From Candidatus Bathyarchaeota archaeon (GTDB lineage: Archaea; Thermoproteota; Bathyarchaeia; Bathyarchaeales; Bathycorpusculaceae), in the NCBI GenBank assembly GCA_963832745.1, contig CAWHVC010000003.1:224001-288000 (forward strand): a stretch of 64,000 nt of DNA, read 5' to 3'. The stretch's first letter is position 1, and each line of letters opens with the position of its first letter. This document shows, piece after piece, positions 37,359 to 56,907 of this stretch. The position numbers and the translations under genes were made by a program. The notes beneath the pieces are model-generated. The model made no database searches, was not told the DNA's origin, and saw only the letters and a program-made list of their open reading frames with translations.

Positions 37359-37433
37359 ATGATAAATCTTCACATTAACCCAAAAAGATTTCAAAGCTAC
37401 AGCTTCGAATACTGCTTTTATTATAACTTCTAA
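37359..37433 (+). CDS. Putative Phe/Tyr-rich leader peptide of the aromatic operon (MINLHINPKRFQSYSFEYCFYYNF)
   Basis: Manual translation; 4 Phe + 4 Tyr in the last 14 codons; downstream of TATA-like CTTATATT (37314-37321) and 63 nt upstream of the first gene. Confidence 0.8.
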   Translation: MINLHINPKRFQSYSFEYCFYYNF

Positions 37434-37437
37434 CAGT

Positions 37438-37478
37438 AGCCCAGAACTAACTAAAATTTTAAAGAAATGTTCTGGGCT
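37438..37478 (+). promoter_or_regulatory. Leader hairpin between leader-peptide stop and the aspartokinase SD
   Basis: Perfect 10-bp inverted repeat agcccagaac/gttctgggct, 4 nt after the leader TAA and 6 nt before GGGGGT. Confidence 0.7.
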
Positions 37479-37496
37479 GGCAAAGGGGGTAAAACG

Positions 37497-38741
37497 GTGG
37501 AAAATATAAAATCTGGCAAAAAAATTGTGGTTAAATTTGGCGGTTCAAGCCTTGCTGATCATGAAAAGCTACTGAAAGCTGTAATGGCTGTTGTTTCGGA
37601 AGCTAAACACGGTGTCAAAATCGCTGTTGTAGTTTCAGCTATGGGTAAAACTACTGATGTACTTATGACCACGGCTAAAAATACTTCAAACGGAAAACTA
37701 GCTAAACATGAATTGGATGACATTCTTTCTATGGGTGAACGCACAAGCGTACGCATCTTCGCTACTGCATTGCGGAACAATGGTGTTGACGCCTGCTACT
37801 TTGACCCCATGGAAGACAAGTGGCCAATAATCACTGATGAATCTTTCCAGAACGCTAACCCAATCGTTAAAGAATGCATCAAAAACATCAAAACCTGCGT
37901 TTTGCCGCTGGTTGAGAAAGGAACCATACCAGTAATTGCAGGTTTCGTAGGTAAAACTAAAGAAGGCAAAATTACCACTCTTGGCAGAGGCGGAAGTGAC
38001 ACCACAGCATTTATCCTTGGAGAAGGTATAGGCGCTGACCAAATCGTTCTTGTCACTGACGCGGATGGCATTATGTCAAGCGACCCCAAAATCATTAAGG
38101 CGCCTAAGCTTTTGCCAGAAATCAACGTTAATACCCTTATAGGTTTGGCTGATTCAGGAGCCAAATTTATCCACAGCAAAGCGCTTAAGTATAAACCGAA
38201 GGACATAGATGTTAAAGTTATGAGCAACAAGCATAACGACCTAAGCCAGCCAGGCACCCTAATTAAAGATGCATTAGCGTGGGAACTTGACGCTGAAATT
38301 GCTTATCCAACACCTGTTGCAGAGATAACGGTTATCGGAGAAGGCCTCTCAAGCAACACTAACATCATTACGGAAATGTTTGAAAAAGTCAGGCAGCAAA
38401 CTACACTGCTTGGCATGTCCATGAACTCAAATTCAATAATATTCTACGTAGCTCAAGAAAACAATATCGTGGAACTTTTCAACCAAATTCACCAAATCAC
38501 TATTGACAACAAAGAAACCATTGCAATGGCAGTCAAAAAAGACTTAGCTTTCATCCAAACCAGTGGTGTCGGTCTTGAAGAAACACGCGGTATCATCGGA
38601 AAAATCAGCGAAGACCTAAGACTTGCGGGCATCAACATTTCAGGCATCTTAACTATCACTTCCAGCATTTTACTGTTTGTAGATTGGAGCGAAAAAGAAA
38701 AAGCTCTAAAGCTCATTAAGACCTCATTAAAAACACACTAG
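37497..38741 (+). CDS. Aspartate kinase (aromatic-operon paralog)
   Basis: VVKFGGSS, LGRGGSDTTA, VTDADG, divergent ACT region; GTG start 6 nt after GGGGGT. Confidence 0.9.
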   Translation: MENIKSGKKIVVKFGGSSLADHEKLLKAVMAVVSEAKHGVKIAVVVSAMGKTTDVLMTTAKNTSNGKLAKHELDDILSMGERTSVRIFATALRNNGVDACYFDPMEDKWPIITDESFQNANPIVKECIKNIKTCVLPLVEKGTIPVIAGFVGKTKEGKITTLGRGGSDTTAFILGEGIGADQIVLVTDADGIMSSDPKIIKAPKLLPEINVNTLIGLADSGAKFIHSKALKYKPKDIDVKVMSNKHNDLSQPGTLIKDALAWELDAEIAYPTPVAEITVIGEGLSSNTNIITEMFEKVRQQTTLLGMSMNSNSIIFYVAQENNIVELFNQIHQITIDNKETIAMAVKKDLAFIQTSGVGLEETRGIIGKISEDLRLAGINISGILTITSSILLFVDWSEKEKALKLIKTSLKTH

Positions 38742-38745
38742 AGAG

Positions 38746-39546
38746 ATGGGATACTTGAATCAAGGCAAAACCAGGCGAATGAAACGAATCTTCCAGCAAG
38801 ATAACCGTACAGTAATTGTCCCAATGGACCACGGCGTAACCATCGGCCCAATCCAAGGCATCACCAACATGCAGCAAACAATAAACCAACTCGTTAAAGG
38901 TGGTGTTGACGCGGTTCTTGTTCACAAAGGCATCGCCAAAACTGTCGATACAACCGGCACCGGCTTAATCGTTATGCTCAGCGGCATGTCAAACCTTAGC
39001 CCAAACATAAACAATAAAGTTCAAGTCTGCAGCGTACAGGAAGCTATACGAATCGGCGCCGACGCAGTTTCCGTTCACGTTAACGTAGGTGCGCAAGATG
39101 AAGATAAAATGCTGCATAACTTGGGCAAAGTAGCTGAAGAATGCGACAGCTTTGGCATTCCTCTTCTTGCCATGATGTACCCGCGGGGACCAAGAATCGC
39201 AAATGAGCATGCACTTGAAGTAGTAGCCCACGCAGCCCGTATAGGTGCAGAACTCGGCGCAGATGTAATCAAAACTAACTACACGGGCACAATCGAATCA
39301 TTTAAGCAGGTTACTGAAAGTTGTCCAGCCCCAGTTCTAATCGCTGGTGGACCAAAATGCAAGTCCGTAGAGGAAATCTTGCAAACGACAAGTGACTCAA
39401 TCAAAGCAGGTGCAGCTGGACTCTCAATTGGACGCAATGTGTTTCAATGCGAAAATCAAGCATTAATCGTGAAGGCGCTCTCAGCTATCGTGCATAAAGG
39501 CGCATCTGTTGAGCAAGCCCAAAAAATTCTTGGTGAAAAACTTTGA
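38746..39546 (+). CDS. 2-amino-3,7-dideoxy-D-threo-hept-6-ulosonate (ADH) synthase, AroA' (class I aldolase family)
   Basis: VPMDHGV..GP, MMYPRG, ELGADVIKTNY, AGGPK, IGRNVFQ; directly before aroB'. Confidence 0.88.
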   Translation: MGYLNQGKTRRMKRIFQQDNRTVIVPMDHGVTIGPIQGITNMQQTINQLVKGGVDAVLVHKGIAKTVDTTGTGLIVMLSGMSNLSPNINNKVQVCSVQEAIRIGADAVSVHVNVGAQDEDKMLHNLGKVAEECDSFGIPLLAMMYPRGPRIANEHALEVVAHAARIGAELGADVIKTNYTGTIESFKQVTESCPAPVLIAGGPKCKSVEEILQTTSDSIKAGAAGLSIGRNVFQCENQALIVKALSAIVHKGASVEQAQKILGEKL

Positions 39547-40556
39547 AAGAGCTCTGGATAGAAACAGGTAAGATAGATGCTTTATCCAACCTCATAAAGA
39601 AGTACTGTGATGTTGTAGTTGAAGGCGACAAAGCTTCTTTTTTGGCTACAATACAAGAACAAACCGTTTTGTCCCCAACTGTTGAGTCTTTCGAGGAATT
39701 AGATGTTAAAGGCAAAGTTCTACGTATCTGCATAAGCGATAAGACAACTGAAAACTTGATTGTTAAAGCCGCAGAAAAAGGCGCAAGTTACATACTTATC
39801 AGCACCGCAAACTGGCGAGTTATTCCACTAGAGAATCTCATTGCCCGCATTAAGGGTAAAAGCAAACTTATCGCTGAAGTAACCAACGCTGAAGAGGCAA
39901 AAGTTGCACTTGAAACCTTGGAACTTGGCACCGACGGCGTGCTGCTAAAAACTTCTGACCCAGATGAGGTCTTAAAAACCGTTGTAGTTGTTAAGCCTGA
40001 AGCTTTGAAACTTGAAATGGCGGTTGCCAAAATCATTTCTACTAAGCCCATAAGCAATGGTGCACGCGTTTGTGTTGATACCTGCGATTTGATGATTCAG
40101 GGCGAGGGTATGCTGGTTGGCAGTCAAAGTGCGGGATTGTTTTTGGTGGAAGCTGAAGTTAACGAGAACCCGTATGTTGCGTCGCGTCCTTTCCGTGTTA
40201 ACGCTGGTTCCTGTTCAATGTACACATTGGGCAACCTCCAAACTACGCGGTACCTTCAAGAATTTAAGGCAGGCGACGAAGTGGTCATTGTTAATCGTGA
40301 GGGTAAAACACGCAGGGGAAATGTGGGTAGAATAAAAATTGAAATCCGCCCCTTAATCCTCGTGGAAGCGCTGGTTGAAGGTAAACTAATCAAAACTATT
40401 CTGCAGAACGCTGAAACTATCCGTGTGGTTACTCCTAAATCGTCTAAACCAGTCACCGAACTTAAAGAGGGCGACGAAGTCATAGTCCACTTAGCAGCAA
40501 AAGGGGGCAGGCACTTCGGCGTCAGCGTACCCGACGAAACGGTGATTGAAAAGTGA
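39543..40556 (+). CDS. 3-dehydroquinate synthase II (AroB')
   Basis: WRVIPLENLIA, RVCVDTC, RPFRVNAG, LQNAETIR, GRHFG. Confidence 0.93.
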   Translation: MKELWIETGKIDALSNLIKKYCDVVVEGDKASFLATIQEQTVLSPTVESFEELDVKGKVLRICISDKTTENLIVKAAEKGASYILISTANWRVIPLENLIARIKGKSKLIAEVTNAEEAKVALETLELGTDGVLLKTSDPDEVLKTVVVVKPEALKLEMAVAKIISTKPISNGARVCVDTCDLMIQGEGMLVGSQSAGLFLVEAEVNENPYVASRPFRVNAGSCSMYTLGNLQTTRYLQEFKAGDEVVIVNREGKTRRGNVGRIKIEIRPLILVEALVEGKLIKTILQNAETIRVVTPKSSKPVTELKEGDEVIVHLAAKGGRHFGVSVPDETVIEK

Positions 40557-41233
40557 CCCCCAAAATTTGCGTGTCCATAAAACCCAAAACCACAATTGAA
40601 GCATGTAGCCTAATCAAGAAAGCTGAAAACGCAAAAGCCGACTTCATTGAGGTCCGCTTTGACAACCTAGAGGAAACCCGCAGGTTTGAAGAAATTTCAA
40701 GCGCAACAAAAATCCCGCTTATTGCCGCAAATAAGCTGCCAAGCGAAGGCGGCAACTTTTCAGGCACCCACAATCAACGTTGGGAAACTTTGGTTTACGC
40801 TGCAAAAAGCGGTTTCCAATATGTCGATTTGGATCTAACAAACCTCAAGCTAAAAGAGAACATTATAGACTTGAAAGAGTTGGGGGTTAAAACTATTGTT
40901 TCATTCCACAGGTTTAGCGACGCTTTTACAGTTCAAGAAATGCAACGCATTTTAAATGAACAAATAAGTAGCGGGGCAGATGTATGCAAAATCATTGGTA
41001 CCGCAAAACAGGTACAAGATAACCTGACTGCACTTAATTTCGTTTCTGAAAACGCGGTTAAAACCAAGCTTGTGTGCTTCTGCATGGGTGAACAGGGCAG
41101 AATTTCGAGGCTTCTTTCGCCAGTTTTTGGGGCATTCTTCACTTTTGCATCTCTGGAAGAAGGTAGCGAGACGGCACCTGGACAAATAAGCATAAAAGAA
41201 ATGAGGACTGCCTACTCTTTATTGAGGCAGTAA
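40553..41233 (+). CDS. aroD: Type I 3-dehydroquinate dehydratase
   Basis: EVRFD, VSFH, GADVCK, CMGEQGRISR, APGQ. Confidence 0.92.
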   Translation: MTPKICVSIKPKTTIEACSLIKKAENAKADFIEVRFDNLEETRRFEEISSATKIPLIAANKLPSEGGNFSGTHNQRWETLVYAAKSGFQYVDLDLTNLKLKENIIDLKELGVKTIVSFHRFSDAFTVQEMQRILNEQISSGADVCKIIGTAKQVQDNLTALNFVSENAVKTKLVCFCMGEQGRISRLLSPVFGAFFTFASLEEGSETAPGQISIKEMRTAYSLLRQ

Positions 41234-41235
41234 CC

Positions 41236-42093
41236 TTGGCTATTTCCGCTAAAACACGTGTTTGCGCAGTTATCGGTGACCCAATAGAGCATTCGCTAAG
41301 TCCAACAATTCAAAATGCAGCGTTTGACGCGTTGGGGCTTGATTTTGTTTATACAGCTTTCAGGGTGAAGTCGTCTATGGTTGCAAACGCTTTAGCTGGA
41401 GTGCGGGCTCTTGGCATTATCGGTTTGAATGTTACTATGCCGCATAAAGAAGCAATTATACCGCAGTTAGATGGGATAGATGAAACAGCCCAATTCCTAA
41501 ATTCAGTAAACACCATCCACAACAAGGATGGCAAACTGTTCGGGTACAGCACCGACGGCATAGGCGCCCTTAACGCGCTTAAAGAGAACGGTTCTGACCC
41601 AAAGGGTAAACAAGTGCTTATGCTTGGTTCAGGCGGAGCCGCAAGAGCAATTGCGTACACGCTTGTCCAAGAAACAGATGAACTTGTTGTTCTTAACCGA
41701 ACAGTTTCAGAAGCCAAAGAATTAGCGGAAACATTAAAACAAAAATTTAACAAAAAAGTCATTGCAGATTCACTCTCACCAGAAGTAATAAAAGAAAAAA
41801 TCTGCGATTCGGACATTCTGATTAACGCAACTTCTGTCGGGATGAAACCTAACTTAGCCCAAAGTTTAATTGCACAAAACAGCTTAAAATCTGACTTGAC
41901 CGTAATGGACATAGTTTACAATCCAGTTGAAACAAAACTTGTTATCGAAGCCAAAGCTGCGGGTGCCAAGGTAGTAAGCGGCGTAGAAATGTTAATTTAT
42001 CAAGGTGCTGCATCTTTTGAAATCTGGACTGGAAAGCAGGCTCCGGTCCAGGTTATGAGAAAAGCCGCGTTTGAACAGTTAATTAGGATGTAA
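41236..42093 (+). CDS. aroE: Shikimate dehydrogenase
   Basis: IGDPIEHSLSP, NVTMPHK, GSGGAAR, NATSVGM, DIVYNP. Confidence 0.96.
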   Translation: MAISAKTRVCAVIGDPIEHSLSPTIQNAAFDALGLDFVYTAFRVKSSMVANALAGVRALGIIGLNVTMPHKEAIIPQLDGIDETAQFLNSVNTIHNKDGKLFGYSTDGIGALNALKENGSDPKGKQVLMLGSGGAARAIAYTLVQETDELVVLNRTVSEAKELAETLKQKFNKKVIADSLSPEVIKEKICDSDILINATSVGMKPNLAQSLIAQNSLKSDLTVMDIVYNPVETKLVIEAKAAGAKVVSGVEMLIYQGAASFEIWTGKQAPVQVMRKAAFEQLIRM

Positions 42094-42099
42094 ATTGTA

Positions 42100-42972
42100 G
42101 TGAAGGGAGAAGCTTTAGCGTTATCTCATGGTGCAGCAACAATCGTTAACGCCATAGCCACTGGTAAAGGGGCAGCATTCGGCGTTGACTTATACACTAA
42201 AGCACAAGTAAAACTAACCAGTGAACCGCAGGTTTTTGAATCCGAAATTACTTCAGACCAAAAAGAGAATCCAGTTTTGATACAAAAAACCGTTCAAGCA
42301 GTCCTCAAATGCTTCGGCAAAGAGAAAGAGTTTGGCGCAAAAGTCAAAACATGGAGCAACATCCCAATTGCTAGAGGACTTAAAAGCAGTAGCACAGCAG
42401 CCAACGCAGTAGCCCTCGCAACCCTTGGCGCTCTTGGCGAGACGCTGGAGGATTTGGAAACTGTAAAGCTGGGTGTACAGGCAGCTTTTGAGGCAAAGGT
42501 TACGGTTACAGGCGCTTTTGATGATGCTTGTGCCTCATTCTTTGGAGGCTTGGTAGTTACAGATAACCTGAACTGCAAACTTGTCAAGCAAGAAACCTTG
42601 ACTGAGGACTATGTAGTTCTGTTTCAGGTGCCCCCCAAAAAAGCCTACACCGTAAACACTGACATCAGCAAGCTTGCAGCGCTTAAGCCGCAGATTGAAG
42701 CAGCATACGACATGACACTGAAAGGTCTCCATTGGGAAGCTTTAACACTTAACGGATTAAGCTACTCGGCTGCTCTTGGTTTTAACTGCAAAGTCGCAGT
42801 TGACGCTTTAGCTGCGGGTGCACGGGCAGCAGGCTTGTGCGGTAAAGGACCAACAATCACTGCCGTCGTCTCCAAAGACCGCATTGAGCAAGTTAGGGCT
42901 GCTTGGCAGGATTATGAAGGGGAAATTTTACAAGCAAGTTTAAACCATGACAAAGCTAAGGTACTCGTATAA
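42100..42972 (+). CDS. aroK: Archaeal (GHMP) shikimate kinase
   Basis: GAATIVNAIATGKGAA, PIARGLKSSS, VTGAFDDA. Confidence 0.94.
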   Translation: MKGEALALSHGAATIVNAIATGKGAAFGVDLYTKAQVKLTSEPQVFESEITSDQKENPVLIQKTVQAVLKCFGKEKEFGAKVKTWSNIPIARGLKSSSTAANAVALATLGALGETLEDLETVKLGVQAAFEAKVTVTGAFDDACASFFGGLVVTDNLNCKLVKQETLTEDYVVLFQVPPKKAYTVNTDISKLAALKPQIEAAYDMTLKGLHWEALTLNGLSYSAALGFNCKVAVDALAAGARAAGLCGKGPTITAVVSKDRIEQVRAAWQDYEGEILQASLNHDKAKVLV

Positions 42973-44276
42973 TGGTCACCGTAACCGTTAAACCCACAAG
43001 CAAACTTCAAGGCACCCTTTGCGCGCCTTCGTCAAAATCTTACACACAACGTATGCTTATAGCAGCGGCGCTTTCACAAGGTACAGGAAAAGTTTCAAAC
43101 CCGCTTTTGTCAGAAGACACTGAAGCAACTTTTAGGGCTATAACAGCTTTAGGTGCCCAAGTACAAAAAGCAGCAGGTTGCTGGAATGTTCAAGGAGCAG
43201 AAGAGCTCAAAGCAGCCAGCGACTTAATTGATGTAGGCGAATCAGGTGCAACCTTGCGGTTTATGATTCCCATCGCGGCACTGGCGTCTGGGCGTTCAGC
43301 GTTTCTGTTGTCGAGTTCTTTGGAAAAAAGGCCAATTGAGCCGCTTCTTTCCAGCCTAAAACAGCTTGGAGTTAACGCTTATCATAAACAGATTGGGGAC
43401 TTTCCAGTAATCGTGGTGGAAGGGAGCGGCTTAGCTGGAGGAAGAACCAGTATCTCAGGTGATGTCAGTAGCCAATTTATCAGCGGCTTAATGTTTGCTT
43501 GCCCAATGGCTAAGGCTGACACGGAGATAACTGTTACAACACCATTAGAATCCAAAGATTACGTAAAAATGACCCAAGAAGTGCTTGCCCAACATCACGT
43601 TGAAGTGCAAATCAGCGACGATTTCCGCCACATCCACATTCCGGGGAGGCAGATTTTCAAGCAGGTTAACTGCAAAGTACCCGGCGACTTTTCCTCAGCG
43701 GCTTTTCTTTTGGCAGCAGCAGCCATCACCAAGTCAAATGTAAAAATAAACAACCTGACCTACGAGACAGCGCAGGGTGACCGTGCAATTTTGGGTGTTC
43801 TTAAGCATATGGGTGTTGAAGGCAAAGTCTGCGAGGACAGCGTAGAAATTCAAGGCACTGGCGGCTTGCTTAAGGCGGTTGATATTGACGCAAAGAATAT
43901 TCCTGATCTAGTACCGATTTGCACGGTTTTGGCTTGCTATTCTGATGGCGAGTCGAGGATTTTTAATGCTCAGCGTTTGCGGTTTAAGGAGTCTGACCGT
44001 TTAGCCACTGTCCACGAGGAGTTAACAAGAATGGGAGCTGAAATCAGCATGGACGAATCGAGCTTAACTATCAAGGGACCTTGCAAACTACACGGCGCAA
44101 CCATCAACCCGCACAATGACCACCGAATCGCCATGTCCACTGCCGTAGCCGCGCTTCGAGCCACTGACGAAACCATAATTGAAAACGCTGAGTGCGTCAG
44201 AAAGTCTTATCCAGCATTCTACACTGATTTAGAAGCATTAGGAGCGGAAATCGTTGGCGGGAAACTCGTTAGGTAA
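42972..44276 (+). CDS. aroA: EPSP synthase
   Basis: PSSKSYTQR, GESGATLR, SSQFISGL, RFKESDRL, DHRIAM. Confidence 0.96.
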   Translation: MVTVTVKPTSKLQGTLCAPSSKSYTQRMLIAAALSQGTGKVSNPLLSEDTEATFRAITALGAQVQKAAGCWNVQGAEELKAASDLIDVGESGATLRFMIPIAALASGRSAFLLSSSLEKRPIEPLLSSLKQLGVNAYHKQIGDFPVIVVEGSGLAGGRTSISGDVSSQFISGLMFACPMAKADTEITVTTPLESKDYVKMTQEVLAQHHVEVQISDDFRHIHIPGRQIFKQVNCKVPGDFSSAAFLLAAAAITKSNVKINNLTYETAQGDRAILGVLKHMGVEGKVCEDSVEIQGTGGLLKAVDIDAKNIPDLVPICTVLACYSDGESRIFNAQRLRFKESDRLATVHEELTRMGAEISMDESSLTIKGPCKLHGATINPHNDHRIAMSTAVAALRATDETIIENAECVRKSYPAFYTDLEALGAEIVGGKLVR

Positions 44277-45357
44277 AGAATTCATTGTAACAACGTTTGG
44301 GGAAAGCCACGGCAAAATCGTCGGCGTATTAATCGATGGCTGCCCAGCAGGGCTTGCGCTTTCGGAAGAGGATTTTCAGGAAGAACTTGACCGTAGAATC
44401 CCAGCAGAGCCCAAGATTGTTTCAGCCCGAGTCGAAAAAGACACAGCTAAGATTCTTAGCGGAGTGTTTAACGGCAAAACCACAGGTGCCCCCATAGCAA
44501 TTACAGTAGATAATAAAGAAACCAAATCCAGCGATTACGATGACATTAAGGACTTGCCAAGACCTGGGCACTCAGATTACCCAGCCCGCATAAGGTATGG
44601 CGGCTTTAACGATTACCGAGGCGGCGGAAGATTCTCTGGAAGAGTCACAGTTGCTCTCATACTTGCAGGAGTCATAGCTAAGAAATTGCTCGGCAGATAC
44701 AACATTGACGTTTTAGCCTACACAGCGGCAATAGGCAAAATCAAGTCCGAAACCCGATTTAATGCCTTGGAAATTCGCAAAAACCGCAACGCCGCAGCCA
44801 CGCGATGCCCTGATTTGGCGTGTGCTGAGAAAATGGAGGAAGCAATTGTTGCAGCCAGAAATGCTGGCGATAGTCTGGGCGGGATAGTTGAGTGCGCCGT
44901 GCTTAACATGCCTGTGGGAATTGGGGAACCGTTGTTTGACGCGTTGGACGCCGATTTAGCTAAGGCACTGTTTGGAGTTTCCGCAGTTAAAGGTGTCGAG
45001 TTTGGAGCTGGATTTGCGGCAGCGGAAATGTTGGGTTCCCGAAATAACGATGCATTCAGATTAAAGAATGGGAAAGTTGAGGCAGTGACAGATAACGCTG
45101 GTGGCATCTTGGGCGGCATAAGCAGTGGTATGCCAATCACGATGCGGGTAGCAATTAAACCTACACCATCAATTAGCAAGGAGCAGAAAACCGTTAACCT
45201 ATGTACAATGCAAGACACCACGTTAAGCGTAAAAGGCCGACATGACCCATGCATAGTGCCTAAAGCAGTGCCAGCCATTGAATCCGTGGTCGCTTTAACT
45301 TTGGTTGACCATCTGATTCGCGCAGGCTATGTCCCAAAAATCCTCAAGGAGCAGTAA
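44254..45357 (+). CDS. aroC: Chorismate synthase
   Basis: TFGESHG, RPGHSD, RGGGRFSGR, GRHDPC. Confidence 0.97.
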   Translation: MAGNSLGKEFIVTTFGESHGKIVGVLIDGCPAGLALSEEDFQEELDRRIPAEPKIVSARVEKDTAKILSGVFNGKTTGAPIAITVDNKETKSSDYDDIKDLPRPGHSDYPARIRYGGFNDYRGGGRFSGRVTVALILAGVIAKKLLGRYNIDVLAYTAAIGKIKSETRFNALEIRKNRNAAATRCPDLACAEKMEEAIVAARNAGDSLGGIVECAVLNMPVGIGEPLFDALDADLAKALFGVSAVKGVEFGAGFAAAEMLGSRNNDAFRLKNGKVEAVTDNAGGILGGISSGMPITMRVAIKPTPSISKEQKTVNLCTMQDTTLSVKGRHDPCIVPKAVPAIESVVALTLVDHLIRAGYVPKILKEQ

Positions 45358-45359
45358 AA

Positions 45360-45620: not shown

Positions 45621-45651
45621 AAAGTAACTCTTAACGGAGAGTCATCTCACC

Positions 45652-46731: not shown

Positions 46732-46733
46732 AA

Positions 46734-47609: not shown

Positions 47610-47710
47610 ACGTCATTGCCCTTTTTTCGGTTTAGAAACCGATTTAAAGCTAATCGGGCTCTATTTCTATAGTCAATTTTTTTGACAGTAACAGTTTTGG
47701 GCTGGAATTT

Positions 47711-48724: not shown

Positions 48725-48844
48725 ACACAACATTAAAAGGAAAAGCAGTTAACCATTAAGTTAGCTCTGCACAGGTTTTTTCAGGCACAAACAAGACGAT
48801 TTTATCAAAAAATCTATTACCTCCCAAACCAACCATTAAGAAAA

Positions 48845-49270: not shown

Positions 49271-49276
49271 CGGTTT

Positions 49277-50089
49277 TTAGATGATTCTTGGGTAAGACCC
49301 TAGAATCTTAACGAAAGTAGCATATTTTTCCAGCGCTTGCAGGGCTTCTGTGCAGCGTTTTTCTGTTCTGTGTCCTTCGAAGTCGAGGTAAAAATTGTAT
49401 TGCCAAGCGGTGGTTTTGGTTGGTCGGGATTCGATGCGTGTTAGGTTAATGTTTCTGGATGCGAATTCGCCTAGGGCATGATATAGGGTTCCGGGCGCGT
49501 GTTTGGCGCTGAAGATTATGCTGGTTTTGTCGTCTCCTGTTGGAGCTGCGTCTTCTTTTGAAAGTACAAGGAAGCGGGTGTAGTTGGATGGGTTGTCGGC
49601 GATGTCTCGGGCTACGATTTTCATGTTGTAGAGGTCTGCGGCTTTTTCGCTGGCGATTGCTGCTGCGTTAAAGAGAGCTTTTTCTTTTATCATTTTCACG
49701 CTGCCAGCGGTGTCGTAAGCTGGAATGATTTCCCATTTGTGCTTTTCAAGGTAACTGCGGCATTGACCAAGCGCTTGAGGATGGGAATAAACTGATTCGA
49801 TGTCTTCAAACTTTGTTTGAGGATTAGCGATTAAGACATGGGCGAGTTTGACGGCGACTTCTCCGCACACTTTAAGGTCATACGCTAAGAAAAGGTCATA
49901 GTTTTGGTTGACGCTACCCTCGATTGAGTTTTCAATCGGCACAACACCATTGGGAACTGCGCCGGTGTTTACGGATTCAAAGACGTCTCGGAAATCCTTA
50001 CAGGGCACAGGCTCTATTTTGCTGCCGAAAAATTTGTAGACAGCCATTTCGCTGTAAGCGCCAGTTTCTCCCTGATAGGTTACTTTCAT
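49277..50089 (-). CDS. pheA: Prephenate dehydratase
   Basis: YQGETGAYSE, PIENSIEGSV, SHPQALGQC, NYTRF, ESRP, LGSY. Confidence 0.96.
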   Translation of the reverse strand: MKVTYQGETGAYSEMAVYKFFGSKIEPVPCKDFRDVFESVNTGAVPNGVVPIENSIEGSVNQNYDLFLAYDLKVCGEVAVKLAHVLIANPQTKFEDIESVYSHPQALGQCRSYLEKHKWEIIPAYDTAGSVKMIKEKALFNAAAIASEKAADLYNMKIVARDIADNPSNYTRFLVLSKEDAAPTGDDKTSIIFSAKHAPGTLYHALGEFASRNINLTRIESRPTKTTAWQYNFYLDFEGHRTEKRCTEALQALEKYATFVKILGSYPRII

Positions 50090-51615
50090 TGTTTCTTGAC
50101 CTGATTACGATTCTTTAGTAGGCACTTGTTTATACCGTTTATCATAGCTTCCACGGACGCCATTACGATGTCTTCACGGGCTGCACGGGCGGATACGATG
50201 TTTCCTTTTTCGTCTTCAACTTTTATGATTACTTCAGCCACTGCGTTAGATCCACCAGTGATTGCTTCGAGACGATATTCGCTTAGCTTTATTTTTTCAA
50301 GGTTGCTTGTTAGCTTCTGTATGGCTTTTAGGACGGCGTCTACTGGGCCTACGCCGGTTTCTGCTGCCACGTACTCTTTGCCGTCCAAGGTTAAGCGTAC
50401 GGAAGCGGTTGGGATAACTTTGATGCCGGTTACGACGGCCATGTCGCATAGGTCAACAATTTTTTCTTCACCGAGGACCTCACCCATAACTGCTGAGGTT
50501 AAAGCGATTAAGTCAGCGTCGGTTACCATTTTGCCTTTGTCACCGAGTTCTTTGACGCGTTGCACGATTTCGGTTAATTGTTGCTCGGTTGGGTGGATGC
50601 CAATTTCGTTTAGTTCTGCTTGGATGCCTCTTGTGCCTGCCAGTTTGCCTGCGACGAGTTTGCGGGTTCTTCCGACTAGTTCGGGGCTGATTGGTTCAAA
50701 CGTTAAGGGCTGCTCTGTGACGCCGCGGGTGTGGATGCCTGATTCGTGGGCAAACGCGTTTTCTCCAACAATTGCTTTGTTTACTTGTACTGAGACGCCG
50801 CTTAATGATGCAACCATCCTAGATGTGCTGTACAGTAAACGCGTGTTTACGTTTGTTTTGTACCCGTAAACCACATGCAAGGTTGTTACTACTTCTTCGA
50901 GCGCCGCGTTGCCTGCACGTTCACCGAGCCCGTTGACGGCGACGTGAACTTGGTCTGCGCCTGCTTCAACTGCTGCAAGGCTGTTGGCAACTGCTAAACC
51001 AAAGTCGTTGTGACAGTGAGCGCTAATTGGAACCTTAATGTAACTCTTTAGCTCCTTGAAAAACTCAAAAGTTGTTCTGGGTATCATGCAGCCGACTGTA
51101 TCTGGCGTGTTTAGGCTGTCCATTCCTGCATCTTGGGCTGCCAAGCAGATTTGACGTAGAAAAGACGCTTCGGTGCGGGTGGCATCCATGGGTGAGAATT
51201 CACATTTTACGCCATGCTTCTTAACGTACTGGATTGAATCAACTGCCGCAGATAGGACTTGTTCCGGAGTCATGTTTACAGCGTGTTTCATCTGCACTGG
51301 TGAAGTTGGGATGAATACGTGAATCAAATCTACATTGCATTCTAAGGCGGCGTCGATATCTTTTCTTGTACATCTGGATAAAGCACAAACTTTTGAGTTT
51401 AGGCCTAATTTGGAGATTTCTTTTACGACTTTACGTTCGCCCTCTGAACTACTGGGAAAACCTGCTTCTATAATGTCGACGCCAAGCTTGTTTAGTTGCT
51501 GGGCGATTTCGATTTTATCTTCCAGAGTCAAAGAAACACCGGGGGTTTGTTCCCCGTCACGTAGTGTCGTGTCTAAGATTTTGATAAATCGGGGGTTTTG
51601 AGTCATTGTTTTCAC
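50086..51615 (-). CDS. leuA: 2-isopropylmalate synthase
   Basis: [26 protein letters not shown]-terminal regulatory domain; in the leu operon. Confidence 0.88.
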   Translation of the reverse strand: MKTMTQNPRFIKILDTTLRDGEQTPGVSLTLEDKIEIAQQLNKLGVDIIEAGFPSSSEGERKVVKEISKLGLNSKVCALSRCTRKDIDAALECNVDLIHVFIPTSPVQMKHAVNMTPEQVLSAAVDSIQYVKKHGVKCEFSPMDATRTEASFLRQICLAAQDAGMDSLNTPDTVGCMIPRTTFEFFKELKSYIKVPISAHCHNDFGLAVANSLAAVEAGADQVHVAVNGLGERAGNAALEEVVTTLHVVYGYKTNVNTRLLYSTSRMVASLSGVSVQVNKAIVGENAFAHESGIHTRGVTEQPLTFEPISPELVGRTRKLVAGKLAGTRGIQAELNEIGIHPTEQQLTEIVQRVKELGDKGKMVTDADLIALTSAVMGEVLGEEKIVDLCDMAVVTGIKVIPTASVRLTLDGKEYVAAETGVGPVDAVLKAIQKLTSNLEKIKLSEYRLEAITGGSNAVAEVIIKVEDEKGNIVSARAAREDIVMASVEAMINGINKCLLKNRNQVKKQ

Positions 51616-51619
51616 AAGC

Positions 51620-52645
51620 TTAAGCTTTTAGCGCTGCAGCAATGGCTTGTGCCATCTGCATTGTAGAGGCTTTGCCGCCTAAATCTGGAACGGTAACGCC
51701 GTTAACCAATGTTTGGACTGTAGCGTTTTCTATTGCCGCAGCTGCCTTTAAGCATTTAGAATCATTAAACCGTTCACCCAGCCAATCCAGCATCATCTTT
51801 GCGGACAGTATCATGGATATGGGGTTTGCGATATGCTTACCAGCAATGTCAGGAGCTGAACCATGAATAGGTTCAAACAATGCAAAGTTATCGCCGATGT
51901 TTGCGCCTGGAGCCATGCCCAGACCGCCGATTAACTGCGCTGCCTCGTCACTTAGGATGTCACCGAACATGTTACACGTGCATAGCACGTCGAAGTCTTG
52001 GGGAGTTCGGATAAGGTGCATTGTCGCTGCGTCAACATACATTTCATTGTATTTGATATCTGGATATTTTTCTGCAGTTTCTTGACAGACTTTTTTGAAT
52101 AAGCCGTCGGTTACACGCATGACGTTTGCTTTATGAATTGCTGTTACTTTCTTTTTAGGGCGCAGTCTTGCGGTTTCAAACGCGCGTTTGGCGATGCGTT
52201 CACAGTTTTGCCTTGAAATTACTCGTAAGCACACGGTTACGTCGTTGCCGATTGTGTATTCTAAGCCTTTGTAGACGTCTTCAGTGTTTTCGCGTACGAA
52301 AATCATGTCTATGTCTGGGCGGGCAACTGGCACGTTTGGAAACGCCTTTAATGGGCGCACGTTAGCGTACAAGTCAAACAGCAAGCGTAATCGGACTATA
52401 ACGTCTGCTGCGGTTTCGCCTACTGGACCTTTCAGGCAAGCGTGTGATTCACGAATAACTTTTAGGCTATCCTCTGGCAGGGCGGCACCACGTTTTTTGA
52501 GCACTGCATCGCCTGCTTCAGCTTTGACTAAGTTGAGGTTTACGCCAAAGTTTTCTTGCACTACATCTATTATTTTCAAGGTTGCTTCAGTTAACTCGGG
52601 TCCGATGCCATCGCCGGGCATTAAGGCGATTTTGTATTCGGTCAT
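51620..52645 (-). CDS. leuB: 3-isopropylmalate dehydrogenase (isocitrate/IPM family)
   Basis: GDGIGPE, RENTE, HKANV, NMFGDILSD, EPIHGSAPD. Confidence 0.9.
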   Translation of the reverse strand: MTEYKIALMPGDGIGPELTEATLKIIDVVQENFGVNLNLVKAEAGDAVLKKRGAALPEDSLKVIRESHACLKGPVGETAADVIVRLRLLFDLYANVRPLKAFPNVPVARPDIDMIFVRENTEDVYKGLEYTIGNDVTVCLRVISRQNCERIAKRAFETARLRPKKKVTAIHKANVMRVTDGLFKKVCQETAEKYPDIKYNEMYVDAATMHLIRTPQDFDVLCTCNMFGDILSDEAAQLIGGLGMAPGANIGDNFALFEPIHGSAPDIAGKHIANPISMILSAKMMLDWLGERFNDSKCLKAAAAIENATVQTLVNGVTVPDLGGKASTMQMAQAIAAALKA

Positions 52646-53145
52646 TTCTTGTTCATCCTTTTACGTAAGTTCTCAATTAATCCGCCGTCAGTCAATATTT
52701 CCATGATGAACGGTGGCAAATTAGTGCCCTGCAAACTCTTTTTAGTTGACAGGTTTTCTATTTTGCCTGTTGTCAAATCGACGGAAACCTCATCGCCAGT
52801 TTTTACGGTTTCAGAGATGCCCTTGCATTCAATGACTGGCAAACCAATGTTTATGGCGTTACGGTAGAAGATGCGTGCAAAGGTTTCAGCGATGACACAT
52901 TTTACACCTGAATACTTCAAGGCTAAAGGAGCTTGTTCTCTGCTTGAGCCGCAGCCAAAGTTTTTGCCGCCAATCAGTATGACGCCGCCTTTTGCTTTGT
53001 TAACAAATTCGGTGTCTAAACTTTCCAAGGCGTGTTTGCCTAACTCGTAAGGGTCAACTAGTACCAAGTATTTTCCAGGTAAGATAACGTCGGTGTCAAT
53101 GTTGTTTCCGAATTTTATTGCTGGAGCTTTAATTTTTGAATCCAT
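52642..53145 (-). CDS. leuD: 3-isopropylmalate dehydratase small subunit
   Basis: NIDTDVI, NFGCGSSREQA, FARIFYRN. Confidence 0.93.
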   Translation of the reverse strand: MDSKIKAPAIKFGNNIDTDVILPGKYLVLVDPYELGKHALESLDTEFVNKAKGGVILIGGKNFGCGSSREQAPLALKYSGVKCVIAETFARIFYRNAINIGLPVIECKGISETVKTGDEVSVDLTTGKIENLSTKKSLQGTNLPPFIMEILTDGGLIENLRKRMNKK

Positions 53146-54413
53146 TACTGTTTTGCCTCCACTGTTGCTGGGTTGGTGATTTTTCCTGTTAACGCTGAAG
53201 CCGCGACCACTGCTGGTGAAGCTAAGTAAACGTTGGCTTGAGTGCTGCCCATTCTGCCGATGAAGTTGCGGTTGCTGGTGCTAACGCATGTTTCGCCTGC
53301 TGCTAGTAAACCGATGTGTCCACCTAAGCATGGACCACAGGCGGAGCCGCAAACGATTGCGCCTGCTTCAGTAAAGATTTCTGTTAAACCTTCAGCTAAT
53401 GCTTGCTTGTAAACTTCCTGTGAAGCCGGAATAACCAAGGCGCGAACGCCGTCTTTGACTTTTTTGCCCTTCATTACTTGAGCGGCTAAACGTAAGTCTT
53501 CTAGTCTACCATTAGTGCATGAACCAATGAATGCTTGGTCAACTACTACATCGCCAACCTCAGAGATTGGCTTAACATTGTCGACACTTGATGGGCACGC
53601 GATTTGAGGCTCCATTTTTGAAACATCAAAATCCATTGTGCATTCATATTGGGCGTCTTTGTCACTTTTCAGTGTTGCAAAGTCTGGCAAGTTTTTGACT
53701 CGGTTTTGTAGGAACTCTTTGGTTGTTTGGTCAGGTTCGACAATTCCGTTTTTGGCACCCATTTCTACTGCCATGTTACATACAGTCATTCTTCCTGCGA
53801 TGCTCATGGCTTTTATGGTTGGACCAGTGAATTCTGCGCTCTTGTAAATTGCGCCATCAACACCTAACTTGCCTATTATGTTTAGGACTAGGTCTTTTGG
53901 TGTGACGTATTTGGGGAATGTTCCGTTAACTTCGATTTTGATTGCTGAGGGTACTTTGAACCAGATTTTTCCGGTTGTCATTACTGCGGCTGCTTCTGTT
54001 GAGCCGATGCCAGTCGCGAAAGCGCCGAATGCGCCATACGTACATGTGTGTGAGTCTGCGCCGACTATTACTGAGCCAGGCACTACATGACCTTGTTCAG
54101 GCATGACTTGGTGGCAGATACCGCCCCGTCCTACGTCATAGATACGTAGTTTTTGTTCTTTAGCAAATTGACGCATTGTTTTATGAAGTTCAGCTGCTTT
54201 AACAGATTCAGCAGGAATCTGGTGGTCTAGAATGACTACTACTTTTTCGTTGTTCCAAACTTTTTCTGCGCCAATTTTTTTAAACGACTCTACAGCTAAA
54301 GGTCCAGTTAAATCGTGAATCATCAAGACGTCAACGTTTGCGTCCACAATTTCTCCTGGGGCGACAGATTTTTTGCCTGATGCTTTAGCTAAGATTTTTT
54401 CTGTAATATTCAT
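53145..54413 (-). CDS. leuC: 3-isopropylmalate dehydratase large subunit
   Basis: GADSHTCT, FIGSCTNGR, CGPCLG, STSNRNF. Confidence 0.93.
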   Translation of the reverse strand: MNITEKILAKASGKKSVAPGEIVDANVDVLMIHDLTGPLAVESFKKIGAEKVWNNEKVVVILDHQIPAESVKAAELHKTMRQFAKEQKLRIYDVGRGGICHQVMPEQGHVVPGSVIVGADSHTCTYGAFGAFATGIGSTEAAAVMTTGKIWFKVPSAIKIEVNGTFPKYVTPKDLVLNIIGKLGVDGAIYKSAEFTGPTIKAMSIAGRMTVCNMAVEMGAKNGIVEPDQTTKEFLQNRVKNLPDFATLKSDKDAQYECTMDFDVSKMEPQIACPSSVDNVKPISEVGDVVVDQAFIGSCTNGRLEDLRLAAQVMKGKKVKDGVRALVIPASQEVYKQALAEGLTEIFTEAGAIVCGSACGPCLGGHIGLLAAGETCVSTSNRNFIGRMGSTQANVYLASPAVVAASALTGKITNPATVEAKQ

Positions 54414-54535
54414 GTTTTTTCTTCTCTTAATATTCTATTTTCCACTAAGCAAATGCGTCTTAAGATTAATCCTCTAAGAGACGTCACTAAAATTTTAAAA
54501 AGGGAAAATTAAGCCTTTCCATTCAGTAAACGCTT

Positions 54536-55048
54536 TTACTCGTCGATTCTGATGGATTTAGCGCCTCGAGCTAATGCGGTTATGCCTGTTCTTGCAAGTT
54601 CAAGGACTCCGAAGGTTTTCATCAAGTTTAGAAAGGCATCGATTTTGTCGGGTCCACCAGTAATCTCTATTGTTAAGCTGTCAGTTGAAACATCGATAAT
54701 TCTGCCTCTGAAGACATTAACGAAGTTGATTACGTCAGAGCGTTCCTTGGAATCCATGATTTTGACTTTAATCAGCGCTAGTTCGCGCATGACAAAGTTG
54801 CCTTGTTCGAGTTCCTCAACTTTTAACACATCGATTTGTTTAGCGACCTGTTTGGTTACCTGTTCAAGGGTTTTTTCGTCCTCGTTGACTGTTATGGTCA
54901 TGCGGGCAATGTCTTTTTGCTGTGTTGCACCTACAGTTATGCTTTCAATGTTGAAGTTTCGTCGTCTAAACAAGTTGGCGATGATATGAAGTACACCGGG
55001 CTTGTTTTCGACTAAGACAGATATGACTTTTGTTTTTCCTGCTTCCAT
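54536..55048 (-). CDS. ilvH: Acetolactate synthase small subunit
   Basis: VENKPGVL...FRRRNFNIESI, RELALIKV, ELARTG. Confidence 0.95.
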   Translation of the reverse strand: MEAGKTKVISVLVENKPGVLHIIANLFRRRNFNIESITVGATQQKDIARMTITVNEDEKTLEQVTKQVAKQIDVLKVEELEQGNFVMRELALIKVKIMDSKERSDVINFVNVFRGRIIDVSTDSLTIEITGGPDKIDAFLNLMKTFGVLELARTGITALARGAKSIRIDE

Positions 55049-56760
55049 TAGTAGTCACCTCTCTGTTGTGGTAATCCACAGCCTGGAGGCACAAATGGAA
55101 CCACATCGGTTTCTGAGCCTATAGGCACATCGATTACCGTTGTAACTTTACTTGACATGGCTGTTTTAACGGCGTTGCGGAACTCGTCAATTGAAGCTGC
55201 ACGGATGCCTTGTGCCCCGTATGCTTCAGCCAACTTGACAAAATCCGTTGTCTTGCCCAAGTTAACAGCGTTGTAGCGTCGGTTATAGAGTGTTCTTTGC
55301 CATTGAGCAACCATACCTAACACGCTATTGTTTAACACTATAACGATTACGGGAATGTCTTCCGTGACGCTGCAGGCTAATTCTTGCTCAGACATGATAA
55401 AGCTGCCATCACCAGCAATGTCGACGACCATGCGGTCGGAACAAGCAACTTTTGCTCCGATAGCTGCAGGGAAACCAAAGCCCATTGTTCCAAGTCCACC
55501 TGAACTGATGAAAGTGCGTGGCTGCAACGTTTGCATGTATAGGGCTGACCACATTTGGTTTTGGCCAACTTCTGTTGTTACTATGCCGCTTTCAGGCAAC
55601 AGTTTACGCAGTTCAGACAGCAAAGCTTTTGGCAGCAAGTCACGCGGCAACTCTTTCATTAAGGGGCTTAACTGTTCCTTGGCTTCCTTGACGCGGTTAG
55701 TCCAGGCTTTGCCTTCGCCTTTCTTTAGCTTCTTAGATGTAGCATTCAGTAGCATTTTCATTGCAGCTTTAGCGTCAGCAACAATAGCTAAGTCAACCTC
55801 AATGTTCTTGTTAATTTCTGCTGGGTCAACATCAATCTGAATTTTTTTAGCGTCCGCTGCAAAAGAGTCCAAGTTGGCGGTTGCACGGTCAGAGAATCTT
55901 GTTCCAATTGCCAGCAAAACGTCGGCTTCACCGATTAACCTGTTAGCGGCTGGGTTGCCATGCATGCCTATGCTTCCTAAAGATAACGGGTGATTCTCTG
56001 GAAATGCGCCTTTACCCATGAAGGTTGTTGCAACAGGCGCCATTAGCAGGTCGGACATTTGCACTATTTCGTCAGATGCGCCTGCCCAGATGACTCCGCC
56101 TCCAACTAGCAAGATTGGGCGTTCTGCTTTTGCTAAGAGTTCGGCGGCTTCGCTGATTTTGGTTGGGTCTGGCGGTTGGGGTAGCCTGTATCCGCGAACG
56201 TTGGGTTTGTTTGTGAATTCAACCTCGGAGATGCCGGCTTGCACGTTTTTGGGCAAGTCAATTAGGACGGGTCCTGGCCTGCCGGTGGTTGCAATGTGGA
56301 AGGCGTTGGTGACCATTTGGGGAATTTCGGAGACGGTGCGTGGTTGGTAATTGTATTTGGTGATGGCTGTGGTGATGCCTAAGATGTCTGCTTCTTGGAA
56401 TGCGTCTCTGCCAATCATGTAGCTTGAGTTGGCGCTGAATGTTGGGATTTGGCCTGTGAGGGCGATGACGGGGCTGGAATCCATGTAAGCGTTTGCGATG
56501 CCTGTTACCAGGTTAGTGGCGCCTGGACCACTGGTTGCCATACATACGCCTGCGCGTCCGCTGGCTCTTGCGTAACCTTCTGCTTCGTGTGCAGCGCATT
56601 GCTCGTGTCGTGCCAGTATGTGTCGGATTTTTTTGTTGCCGCAGAGCGCATCGTATACTGGAAGTATGGCGCCTCCTAAGATTCCAAAGATGGTGTCAAC
56701 ATTTTGACGTTCAAGGGATTCTAAAAGTGCTTGTGCACCAGACATTTTTGGCATGTTCAA
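55048..56760 (-). CDS. ilvB: Acetolactate synthase large subunit
   Basis: RHEQ, TSGPGATN, GRPGPV, SGGLGTMGFG, GDGSF. Confidence 0.96.
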   Translation of the reverse strand: MNMPKMSGAQALLESLERQNVDTIFGILGGAILPVYDALCGNKKIRHILARHEQCAAHEAEGYARASGRAGVCMATSGPGATNLVTGIANAYMDSSPVIALTGQIPTFSANSSYMIGRDAFQEADILGITTAITKYNYQPRTVSEIPQMVTNAFHIATTGRPGPVLIDLPKNVQAGISEVEFTNKPNVRGYRLPQPPDPTKISEAAELLAKAERPILLVGGGVIWAGASDEIVQMSDLLMAPVATTFMGKGAFPENHPLSLGSIGMHGNPAANRLIGEADVLLAIGTRFSDRATANLDSFAADAKKIQIDVDPAEINKNIEVDLAIVADAKAAMKMLLNATSKKLKKGEGKAWTNRVKEAKEQLSPLMKELPRDLLPKALLSELRKLLPESGIVTTEVGQNQMWSALYMQTLQPRTFISSGGLGTMGFGFPAAIGAKVACSDRMVVDIAGDGSFIMSEQELACSVTEDIPVIVIVLNNSVLGMVAQWQRTLYNRRYNAVNLGKTTDFVKLAEAYGAQGIRAASIDEFRNAVKTAMSSKVTTVIDVPIGSETDVVPFVPPGCGLPQQRGDY

Positions 56761-56856
56761 TTCTGTCTCCTTTGTTTTGAATTAGCGTTTAGACTGTTGT
56801 CTATGAAAAAATTGTTTGAGAACCGTGTTGCTTGTTTAGAGGTTAACCTAGGAATG

Positions 56857-56907
56857 TTAGAGAATAAGTACCCGTCGATCCCAGCTATTGAGGTGACAAT
56901 CCCTCAT
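56857..56907 (-). CDS. Putative Val/Leu/Ile leader peptide of the ilv-leu operon (MRDCHLNSWDRRVLIL)
   Basis: Manual translation; GAGG SD 7 nt before ATG; ends GTA CTT ATT CTC TAA; 96 nt upstream of ilvB. Confidence 0.7.
   Translation of the reverse strand: MRDCHLNSWDRRVLIL

Follow-up and report, generated by a model that had tools for sequence, protein, structure and literature searches.

The window analyzed here comprises 64,000 nucleotides (nt) of a Candidatus Bathyarchaeota genome of 3.02 Mb (G000:C3:224001-288000; GC content 0.41-0.42) and contains two amino-acid biosynthetic operons, aro and ilv, each preceded by a short leader open reading frame (ORF). The aro operon lies on the forward strand and begins with an aspartate kinase gene (37485-38741, including the Shine-Dalgarno (SD) sequence GGGGGT at 37485-37490), which was assigned by NCBIfam with an E value of 1.6e-110 and whose GTG start at 37497 was set by alignment to relatives that have ATG at this position. 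Genes for ADH synthase, DHQ synthase II, aroD, aroE, an archaeal shikimate kinase, aroA, aroC, a chorismate-mutase-like ORF, an aminotransferase and prephenate dehydrogenase (tyrA) follow at 38746-47609 (+). The archaeal dehydroquinate route uses aspartate semialdehyde, and the position of aspartate kinase at the head of the operon, with ADH synthase and DHQ synthase II next, suggests that this enzyme is under aromatic amino-acid control. On the reverse strand, the operon ilvB-ilvN-leuC-leuD-leuB-leuA-pheA occupies 49277-56771 and opens with the SD sequence AGGAGAC (56771-56765) and three candidate ilvB starts (TTG 56760, ATG 56754 and ATG 56745). A first-pass annotation had described two leader peptides, MINLHINPKRFQSYSFEYCFYYNF (aro) and MRDCHLNSWDRRVLIL (ilv), as regulatory leader ORFs of archaeal amino-acid operons that act by something other than the bacterial terminator/antiterminator switch. 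Translation confirmed both peptides, the genes downstream fit the cognate residues (aspartate kinase and the aro operon; ilvBN-leuCDBA-pheA), and our analysis upholds both the regulatory role and the departure from the bacterial switch.

Orthologous upstream regions were gathered from 40 relatives. The aro comparison included 22 loci of the genus in which aspartate kinase adjoins ADH synthase and 6 loci of other genera (28 in all), and the ilv comparison included 23 genus loci and 6 loci from other families (29 in all, from seven families). The regions upstream of two other amino-acid operons of the genome, his and trp, both outside the window, were also examined, and the Thr, Met, Arg, Lys, Pro and Ser/Cys pathways were covered only by a search for ATGAGG[GA]AT-type starts and a generic frame scan. 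Dinucleotide shuffles served as the chance baseline for frame openness.

Upstream of the aro leader, a putative TATA-like promoter element for the leader transcript, GCTTATATTTT (37313-37323, +), stands at a constant distance of ~44-49 nt from the leader ATG at 21 of the 22 genus loci, the 22nd locus being cut off. The leader itself (37359-37433, +, TAA included) is an ORF of 24-29 codons from a proximal ATG at all 22 genus loci and also occurs in three other genera. Its N-terminal half is variable (MNNLQVNPKRF.., MSNCKSKKENS.., MLNAKNKTNIT..), its tail SF[DE]Y.FYY.. is conserved, its length differences are multiples of three, and Phe and Tyr make up 7-9 of the last 12 residues at all 22 loci. 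From its 3' end to the aspartate kinase start is a distance of 64 nt. Aro leaders were not found in the 1.5-kb flanks of other families of the order (7 loci), which is no evidence of absence there.

Two conserved hairpins accompany the aro leader. Stem A is formed by a 5' arm directly upstream of the leader ATG (GGTTCGAAGC, 37345-37354, +) and a 3' arm that codes for S-F-E (GCTTCGAAT, 37402-37410, +); its seven pairs are each kept in 19-22 of the 22 sequences according to RNAalifold, with no compensatory change, and the stem is also present in the minimum free energy (MFE) fold of the window sequence. Hairpin B (37439-37477, +; RNAalifold) consists of GCCCAGAAC, an A/T-rich loop with a T run, and GTTCTGGGC, and each of its nine pairs is retained in all 22 sequences, with G-U variants in five. 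The hairpin B element is single-copy in the genome and was found in 4 of 70 genera of the family sample. That stem A and hairpin B are palindromic DNA sites for a regulator was considered and judged unlikely, since their spacer lengths vary.

A longer frame of 47 codons plus TAA (37366-37509, +) overlaps the aro leader in the +1 phase. It contains no ATG, GTG or TTG, crosses hairpin B and the SD sequence and start of aspartate kinase, and stops 10 nt past the GTG. The same +1 frame extends to the aspartate kinase start region or further at 19 of the 22 genus loci and 4 of the 6 loci of other genera (23/28); at four of the five remaining loci it is the +2 frame that reaches this region, and at the fifth (L272) neither frame does. 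Within the leader, UUU-UAU (37416-37421, +; P-site Phe, A-site Tyr) is a candidate shift site, as TTTTAT is nearly invariant across the aligned leaders (TTC-TAT in 1/22) and the P-site tRNA would re-pair perfectly with UUU after a +1 slip.

The ilv leader is more compact. Its ATG is probably served by the SD sequence AGAGG (56915-56919, -), and AGAGG or AGGGG is found 8 nt 5' of the ATG at all 23 genus loci. The 0 frame (56857-56907, -, TAA included) has a fixed length of 16 codons with TAA or TGA in a single alignment column (23/23). The first 13 codons are almost invariant, synonymous sites included, and the three codons preceding the stop vary, giving tails such as VLIL, VLFL, VFIL, VQIS, VQLL, VQLF, VHFY and VPRN. 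Leaders of other families of the order read MRDNRVRGNRFLHR, MRDRFLNRHR and similar, and no ILV tail is present in other families. RNAalifold places three helices in the region of the leader (56836-56923, -), namely AGAGG/CCUCU, GAGG/CCUC and a hairpin around CUGG/UCGG. An alternative CUGGG-CCCAG pairing 3' of the leader stop was noticed by eye; two relatives have a G-to-A change there that is accompanied by C-to-U. Such structures, if formed, would overlap the SD sequence, start codon and Leu sensor codon of the leader.

Between the ilv leader and ilvB, which lie ~95 nt apart, is a T6 run (CAATTTTTTCAT, 56806-56811, -) within a T-rich tract of the alignment; it is a possible archaeal oligo-T terminator, with no accompanying hairpin. 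The +1 frame of the leader spans 48 codons plus TGA (56757-56903, -), has no ATG, GTG or TTG in this genome, and ends in a TGA that overlaps the ilvB TTG and lies 2 nt upstream of the first ilvB ATG. Across all 29 loci, this frame is free of stops from a TGA that overlaps the leader ATG to positions -11 to +14 of the ilvB start region (47-65 codons), and frames 0 and +2 are closed in every one (open 0/29), openness being scored from the sensor codon to 15 nt 5' of the ilvB start. Between the seven families the spacer is unrelated in sequence and varies in length (138-185 nt), and dinucleotide shuffles left a frame of this type open in 4-23% of trials per locus. The aro and ilv leaders have in common a short 0-frame ORF that is overlapped by a longer, shifted frame, start-less in this genome, ending at the start of the first gene.

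The generic scan for ORFs that lack an early start codon and end at gene starts recovered aro, ilv and trp. Ten other candidates from it were compared with NCBIfam and dropped, as none matched amino-acid biosynthesis (eight fell into no family, and the other two were a flavin reductase and a radical SAM enzyme). Upstream of the trp operon stands ATGAGGAATTGCCTTTGG.. (MRNCLW..), and upstream of the his operon ATGAGGGATTGCGTTCAT.. (MRDCVH..); further leaders, on which the first-pass annotation had made its idea depend, thus exist in the same genome and in its relatives. Together with the ilv leader (MRDCHL..) they form a family M-R-[DN]-x-x-Z in which codon 6 specifies the operon's own amino acid; ilv leaders from other families have Val or Leu at this position. 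The ilv and aro leaders are accordingly different sub-types, a member of this family and a longer F/Y-rich ORF, respectively.

In the trp operon, the TrpE frame is open for 446 codons, and the match to the archaeal TrpE profile begins at residue 32; the first ATG, GTG or TTG in this frame is at about residue 69, and the frame is closed on its 5' side by a TGA that overlaps the leader ATG. The gene (G000:C2:197533 to 196189, -; locus L179) has no start codon in its own frame, which is +1 of ATGAGGAATTGCCTTTGGC. In 26 of 28 genomes, trpE has as its sole start an ATG or GTG located in the -1 frame, which three codons separate from [C/G/A]UU-UGG, in the context ATG-[AG]GG-[AG]AT-NNN-[CGA]TT-TGG-C. 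The 0 frame ends after 10-34 codons and TrpE runs on in +1. Sequencing error is excluded by the 26 independent assemblies, and transcriptional slippage was rejected in that no homopolymer run is present to permit it. Translation of TrpE thus appears to depend on a change of frame. Genome G006, in which the ATG is fused in frame to TrpE and the UGG is missing, lends indirect support to TrpE as a trans-frame product; genome G027 combines the +1 layout with an additional ATG in frame with TrpE. At the 3' end of trpE, another frame contains a second, short Chorismate_bind match (C2:196161-196247), which may reflect either a second shift of frame or an overlap of trpE with the gene that follows.

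The his leader contains two His codons exactly 19 nt apart, the second of which is in the +1 frame. At all 28 loci, frame 0 stops after ~21 codons and frame +1 stops ~3 codons past the second His codon, and frame +2 stays open from the leader ATG as far as -10 to +11 of the hisG ATG. This layout, which a family of another order shares (L252/L253), would be accounted for by +1 shifts at the two His codons in succession, and we found no other simple reading. Several families have the double-sensor pattern, which was detected in 88 of 401 sampled Bathyarchaeia genomes, with a single hit in the reversed control; in the phylum's other classes it occurred in 1 of 257 genomes, where the consensus is missing and the hit looks like chance. 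A second match to the pattern in this genome, at G000:C2:195060-195093 (-) inside a trp-operon gene, has no GGCG consensus and is probably also due to chance.

The sensor codon fits the pathway in every family seen, with UGG in trp, CAY in his and either CUC/CUU or GUA in ilv-leu. Sites in ilv, his and trp have a common layout, consisting of a G-rich stretch, [GA]AU[CUA], a spacer, a P-site codon and the sensor codon, and the spacer is 2 nt in all five modules (ilv1, ilv2, his1, his2 and trp). In the ilv leader, module 1 (56890-56905, -) comprises the SD-like GAGGGATT (56905-56898), the 2-nt spacer, P-site CAC (56895-56893) and the Leu sensor CUC (56892-56890), and module 2 (56869-56882, -) comprises the SD-like GGGATC (56882-56877), the 2-nt spacer, P-site CGG (56874-56872) and the Val sensor GUA (56871-56869). 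Other families have the two modules in the opposite order, Val before Leu, with both in frame 0. At its 3' end the genome's 16S rRNA reads ..GGAUCACCUCCU, with which GAGG-GAUC can form eight base pairs with one bulged A. Duplex energies were computed over the 14 nt preceding the P codon against the genome's own 16S 3' tail and were -9.1 kcal/mol for ilv1 and his1, -7.7 for ilv2, -7.0 for his2 and -5.6 for trp. Among 20000 in-gene positions used as background (mean -3.0 kcal/mol), 1.3% were as strong as or stronger than ilv1 and 3% ilv2. Re-pairing of the P-site tRNA after a +1 slip is predicted to be good at CUU|U, GUU|U and AUU|U (trp) as well as at UUU|U (aro), and partial at CGG|G, UUC|C and CUU|C. 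That even synonymous sites are conserved in the ilv leader is explained by the combination of SD-like module, P-site codon and sensor codon. An earlier idea that the ilv leader is an RNA element with two GGGATCGTC repeats, perhaps a binding site for protein or tRNA, was dropped, as the frame pattern identifies the repeats as the two sensor modules. The variable tail of the ilv leader (56860-56868, -) often has a CUU with A, C or U as the next base (here CUU_AUU_C) and resembles the Ty1 heptamer; this CUU could be a third shift site, sensing Ile or Leu, that has no SD-like module.

On this basis, we consider it probable that both leaders of the window serve a form of Bathyarchaeia regulation by programmed +1 ribosomal frameshifting at 'hungry' cognate codons. 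The shared frame architecture argues for ribosomal frameshifting rather than for an effect in the exit tunnel or of the stop context. Comparative sequence analysis, from which come the frame architecture, the identity of the sensor codons, the SD-like module with its constant spacing and the apparent dependence of TrpE on a frame change, gives strong support to frameshifting for ilv, his and trp and moderate support for aro.

What triggers the slip (a shortage of the amino acid), how frequent it is and how the shifted ribosome affects downstream expression, we infer as follows. A ribosome would initiate at the leader ATG and, a few codons on, meet a codon for the operon's product, Leu CUC and Val GUA in ilv or Tyr and Phe in aro. 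With charged tRNA plentiful, it would decode in frame and terminate at the nearby 0-frame stop, with ~95 nt still to go to the first gene in ilv and ~65 nt in aro. With charged tRNA scarce, the A site would stay empty and the peptidyl-tRNA would slip one base forward, aided in the ilv, his and trp type by the complement to the 16S 3' tail, which is placed 2 nt 5' of the P-site codon in a prfB-like layout. The shifted ribosome would then read the long +1 frame, which lacks a start codon of its own in this genome, up to the start of the first biosynthetic gene. Expression of the operon would rise by termination-reinitiation, by the ribosome trailing the polymerase over a T-rich, terminator-like tract, or by both. 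The shifted frames of ilv, his and aro end within ~15-20 nt of the first gene's start codon, which is the geometry of termination-reinitiation, and a ribosome behind the polymerase might prevent premature termination at the ilv T tract (T6). In trpE the effect would be direct, the enzyme being the trans-frame product.

We also favor, with somewhat less assurance, the broader view that a single programmable recoding switch operates for at least four pathways (Trp, His, branched-chain and aromatic) in Bathyarchaeia, in which an SD-like grip on the 16S tail, a P-site codon and a single specifier codon convert a shortage of charged tRNA into a +1 shift. If so, serial sites, as in his, would steepen the response, parallel sites, as in ilv with Leu or Val, would make it multivalent, and a site inside trpE would make the enzyme itself the trans-frame product.

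Several observations weigh against frameshifting or fall outside it. The aro +1 frame is closed within hairpin B at 5 of the 28 loci, with both shifted frames closed in L272, and shuffles keep it open in 12-41% of trials, so that the frame evidence alone is not decisive for this leader. The SD-like module is absent from the aro leader (-0.9 kcal/mol), and its strongly conserved hairpins A and B lie outside what the frameshift model explains, as do the predicted helices of the ilv leader. The trp module pairs weakly with the 16S tail, 11% of background positions being as strong, and +1 re-pairing is poor at CAC|C, the P-site codon of ilv module 1. At ilvB, no conserved structure masking the ribosome-binding site was detected (RNAalifold, -0.62 kcal/mol), and the gene has a good SD sequence of its own and may initiate independently. 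Finally, kinship among the sequences means that the counts overstate independence, the independent units being about seven families for ilv and four to five for his.

The alternative that survives best is classical leader-peptide attenuation without any frameshift, in which the position of a ribosome stalled at cognate codons is by itself enough to alter RNA folding, the accessibility of the downstream ribosome-binding site or termination at a T run. Overall we regard it as unlikely, and it applies mainly to aro, for which a mechanism of stalling only is a serious rival. The aro leader has its 7-9 Phe/Tyr codons within the last 12, as in bacterial pheL, this tract is flanked by the two conserved hairpins, and the loop of hairpin B contains a T run. 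The SD sequence of aspartate kinase, moreover, is paired in the MFE fold of the window sequence with the last leader codons, from which a stalled ribosome would free it. Such pairing is seen in only some of the 22 folds, however, and the T run sits in a loop and not 3' of a hairpin. Hairpins A and B have no alternative, mutually exclusive pairing partners among the 22 sequences (RNAalifold); likewise, neither hairpins of the bacterial type (1:2, 2:3, 3:4; RNAalifold) nor an intrinsic terminator (a GC-rich hairpin plus U run) ahead of the first gene was found for aro or ilv. Stalling also fits poorly to the ilv leader, with its single Leu and single Val codon and variable tail, and leaves unexplained the start-less frames that end at a gene start in ilv (29/29) and his (28/28) as well as the start-less TrpE.

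Frameshifting would likewise be unnecessary if the long frame were initiated at a non-canonical AUU or AUC just 3' of the ATG, with two overlapping ORFs in competition. Within the genus, the second codon of the shifted frame is indeed AUY in all three leader types, as GGG-AUY-G for ilv and his and as GGA-AUY-G for trp. The his leader speaks against such starts, in that the frame with AUY is the one that closes ~3 codons past the second His codon, and only +2 reaches hisG (28/28). In G006, the fusion of the ATG in frame to TrpE went along with loss of the AUY, the nearest SD-like GAGG is just 1 nt from the AUY, and the cognate sensor codons and the fixed 19-nt spacing would be left without a role. 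We therefore hold initiation at AUY to be very improbable.

We give equally little credence to the proposal that the ilv leader is chiefly a structured RNA, riboswitch-like or protein-binding, in which the ORFs are incidental. The near-invariant synonymous sites of the first 13 codons, the three RNAalifold helices and the candidate CUGGG/CCCAG pairing with its matched changes in two sequences could be taken in this sense. The consensus fold is weak, however (RNAalifold, -13.7 kcal/mol, 0 compensatory pairs), and Rfam covariance models gave no match at either leader (window 36000-58500, E up to 5). In other families the order of the modules is swapped with the reading frame preserved, and the open frame of 47-65 codons up to the ilvB start (29/29) would go unexplained.

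The first-pass annotation had proposed a nascent-peptide motif (H-[IL]-N at residues 5-7 plus a basic pair before the cognate tract) or a stop context (TC-TAA-CA), acting in the exit tunnel or at termination. All three features are literally present in both peptides of this genome, as H-I-N and H-L-N, as KR and RR, and as identical ends. Among the aro leaders, H-[IL]-N at residues 5-7 is confined to 1 of the 22 in the genus and 0 of 6 in other genera (one has H-V-N), and KR to 2/22. The ilv leaders of the genus do keep H-L (23/23), H-L-N (19/23) and RR (20/23), and other families have R-V-R or R-F-L and lack the features. H-L-N is kept in ilv because these residues are encoded by P-site CAC, the Leu sensor codon and the codon that follows, and it is this nucleotide-level module that made H-L-N and D-R-R-V look like a peptide motif. 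With the TC-TAA-CA ending found in only 1/22 aro and 1/23 ilv leaders, the match between the two peptides is best read as chance, a caveat the annotation itself had voiced, and a mechanism of this kind can be set aside as exceedingly improbable. The notion of a common, non-bacterial mechanism has held up; its common element is the frame architecture and not H-[IL]-N, the basic pair or the stop context. When residue enrichment, which had been suggested as a means of finding further leaders, was used to rank 8036 small upstream ORFs across the genome, neither leader came among the first 70, and the ranking was discarded as noise; ten of the downstream proteins were inspected, by eye only, and none resembled an amino-acid biosynthesis enzyme.

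The nearest known relative in design is prfB, the bacterial gene for release factor 2, which is autoregulated by a +1 frameshift at CUU_UGA_C with an upstream SD-like stimulator. As in prfB, there is a short 0-frame ORF, a slippery P-site CUU, a putatively slow A-site codon that would report on the regulated factor, an internal SD-like sequence and a predicted +1 product, and the trp site CUU_UGG_C is one base from that of prfB. Unlike in prfB, the A-site codon is a sense codon read by an aminoacyl-tRNA and not a stop codon read by a protein factor, the setting is that of archaeal amino-acid operons, and in ilv, his and aro it is an upstream ORF that acts rather than a site within the gene. 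The antizyme (OAZ) polyamine sensor is similar in that the frameshift is both sensor and effector of metabolic feedback, but its ligand and stimulation are different, it is eukaryotic, and its logic is reversed, antizyme being made when the product is in excess. Like the bacterial attenuators trpL, hisL, pheL, ilvL and thrL, the leaders would read the supply of charged tRNA via cognate codons; the aro leader has an F/Y cluster at 22/22 loci and in many relatives ends F-P-stop, like E. coli pheL. In ilv (one Leu and one Val codon), his and trp, however, single or double sensor codons replace the codon runs of bacterial attenuators, and the signal would be read out as a shift of frame. In erm and cat, which are subject to translational attenuation, a ribosome in a leader ORF likewise governs translation of the next gene, but there drug-induced stalling opens an SD-masking hairpin, and no conserved mask was found for ilvB.

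As in prfB and Ty1, a functional +1 frame seems to lie beyond the reach of ordinary initiation while the 0 frame ends soon (trpE 26/28, ilv 29/29, his 28/28 as +2, aro 23/28), and an SD-like stimulator appears at a short, fixed distance in ilv, his and trp, though not in aro. The A-site codon is always cognate and would be slow under starvation.

To our knowledge, the coupling of amino-acid supply to the expression of biosynthetic operons in archaea is poorly understood. Our literature searches returned no description of leader-peptide attenuation in archaea or of a frameshift system such as this one. On hungry-codon frameshifting with functional trans-frame products, the relevant passage of Atkins et al. 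(2016, PMC5009743) states that 'no examples are known'. The same review describes the +1 frameshift of yeast Ty1 and ABP140 at CUU_AGG_C, where a slow sense codon follows CUU; the trp site CUU_UGG_C is one base from it, and, as in Ty1, the shift would be driven by a hungry sense codon after CUU. The slowness in Ty1 comes from a constitutively rare tRNA and gives a fixed product ratio, whereas the sensor codon here always matches the end product of the pathway, which implies feedback regulation. At the terminal CCC_UGA of E. coli pheL, +1 frameshifting that is apparently incidental has been reported (Gurvich et al. 2011, PMC3082878; PMC5009743). As described there, this event also falls within the leader peptide gene of an aromatic amino-acid operon, but it occurs at the stop codon and no shifted frame leads towards the structural gene. 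The sections of a 2021 review of archaeal recoding (PMC8211752) that we draw on list fucA1 (-1, proven), a haloviral +1 case and a suggested case in Mg-chelatase, and no cellular +1 case. Neither trpE nor anthranilate or tryptophan is mentioned in the main text of the GeneTack survey (PMC3711429), whose supplements could list frameshifted trpE clusters.

If the proposal is correct, it would represent a new way to sense amino-acid shortage and the first natural regulatory use of hungry-codon frameshifting, a functional counterpart in archaea of attenuation and T-boxes. It would mean that SD-like contacts act on elongating archaeal ribosomes, and would provide engineers with a compact, codon-programmable sensor of aminoacyl-tRNA levels. 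It would also explain the start-less or truncated-looking trpE genes of these genomes; a trpE that has no start codon in its own frame is truncated by automatic annotation or called a pseudogene, which is a pitfall for annotators. The idea of an archaeal form of attenuation becomes testable with simple reporters.

A few further features of the genome were recorded. The match to histidinol dehydrogenase at G000:C3:569358-570573 (-), outside the window, is in two pieces with one internal TAG (ORFs of 320 and 114 amino acids) and could represent a broken gene, read-through or another recoding event. Within the window, the ilvN-leuC spacer (122 nt, 54414-54535, -) contains both CCCTTTTTAAAATTTT, which is rich in T, and GACGTCTCTTAGAGG..CTTAAGACGC, which forms an imperfect inverted repeat, and is a possible internal terminator or processing site. 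The ORF of 87 codons between aroC and the aminotransferase gene (45360-45621, +; MEDLQTLRKRVDEIDEKILK..) resembles an AroQ-type chorismate mutase, as judged by eye only. The ilv-leu operon is closed by pheA, which encodes prephenate dehydratase (49277-50089, -), and the aro operon is closed by prephenate dehydrogenase.

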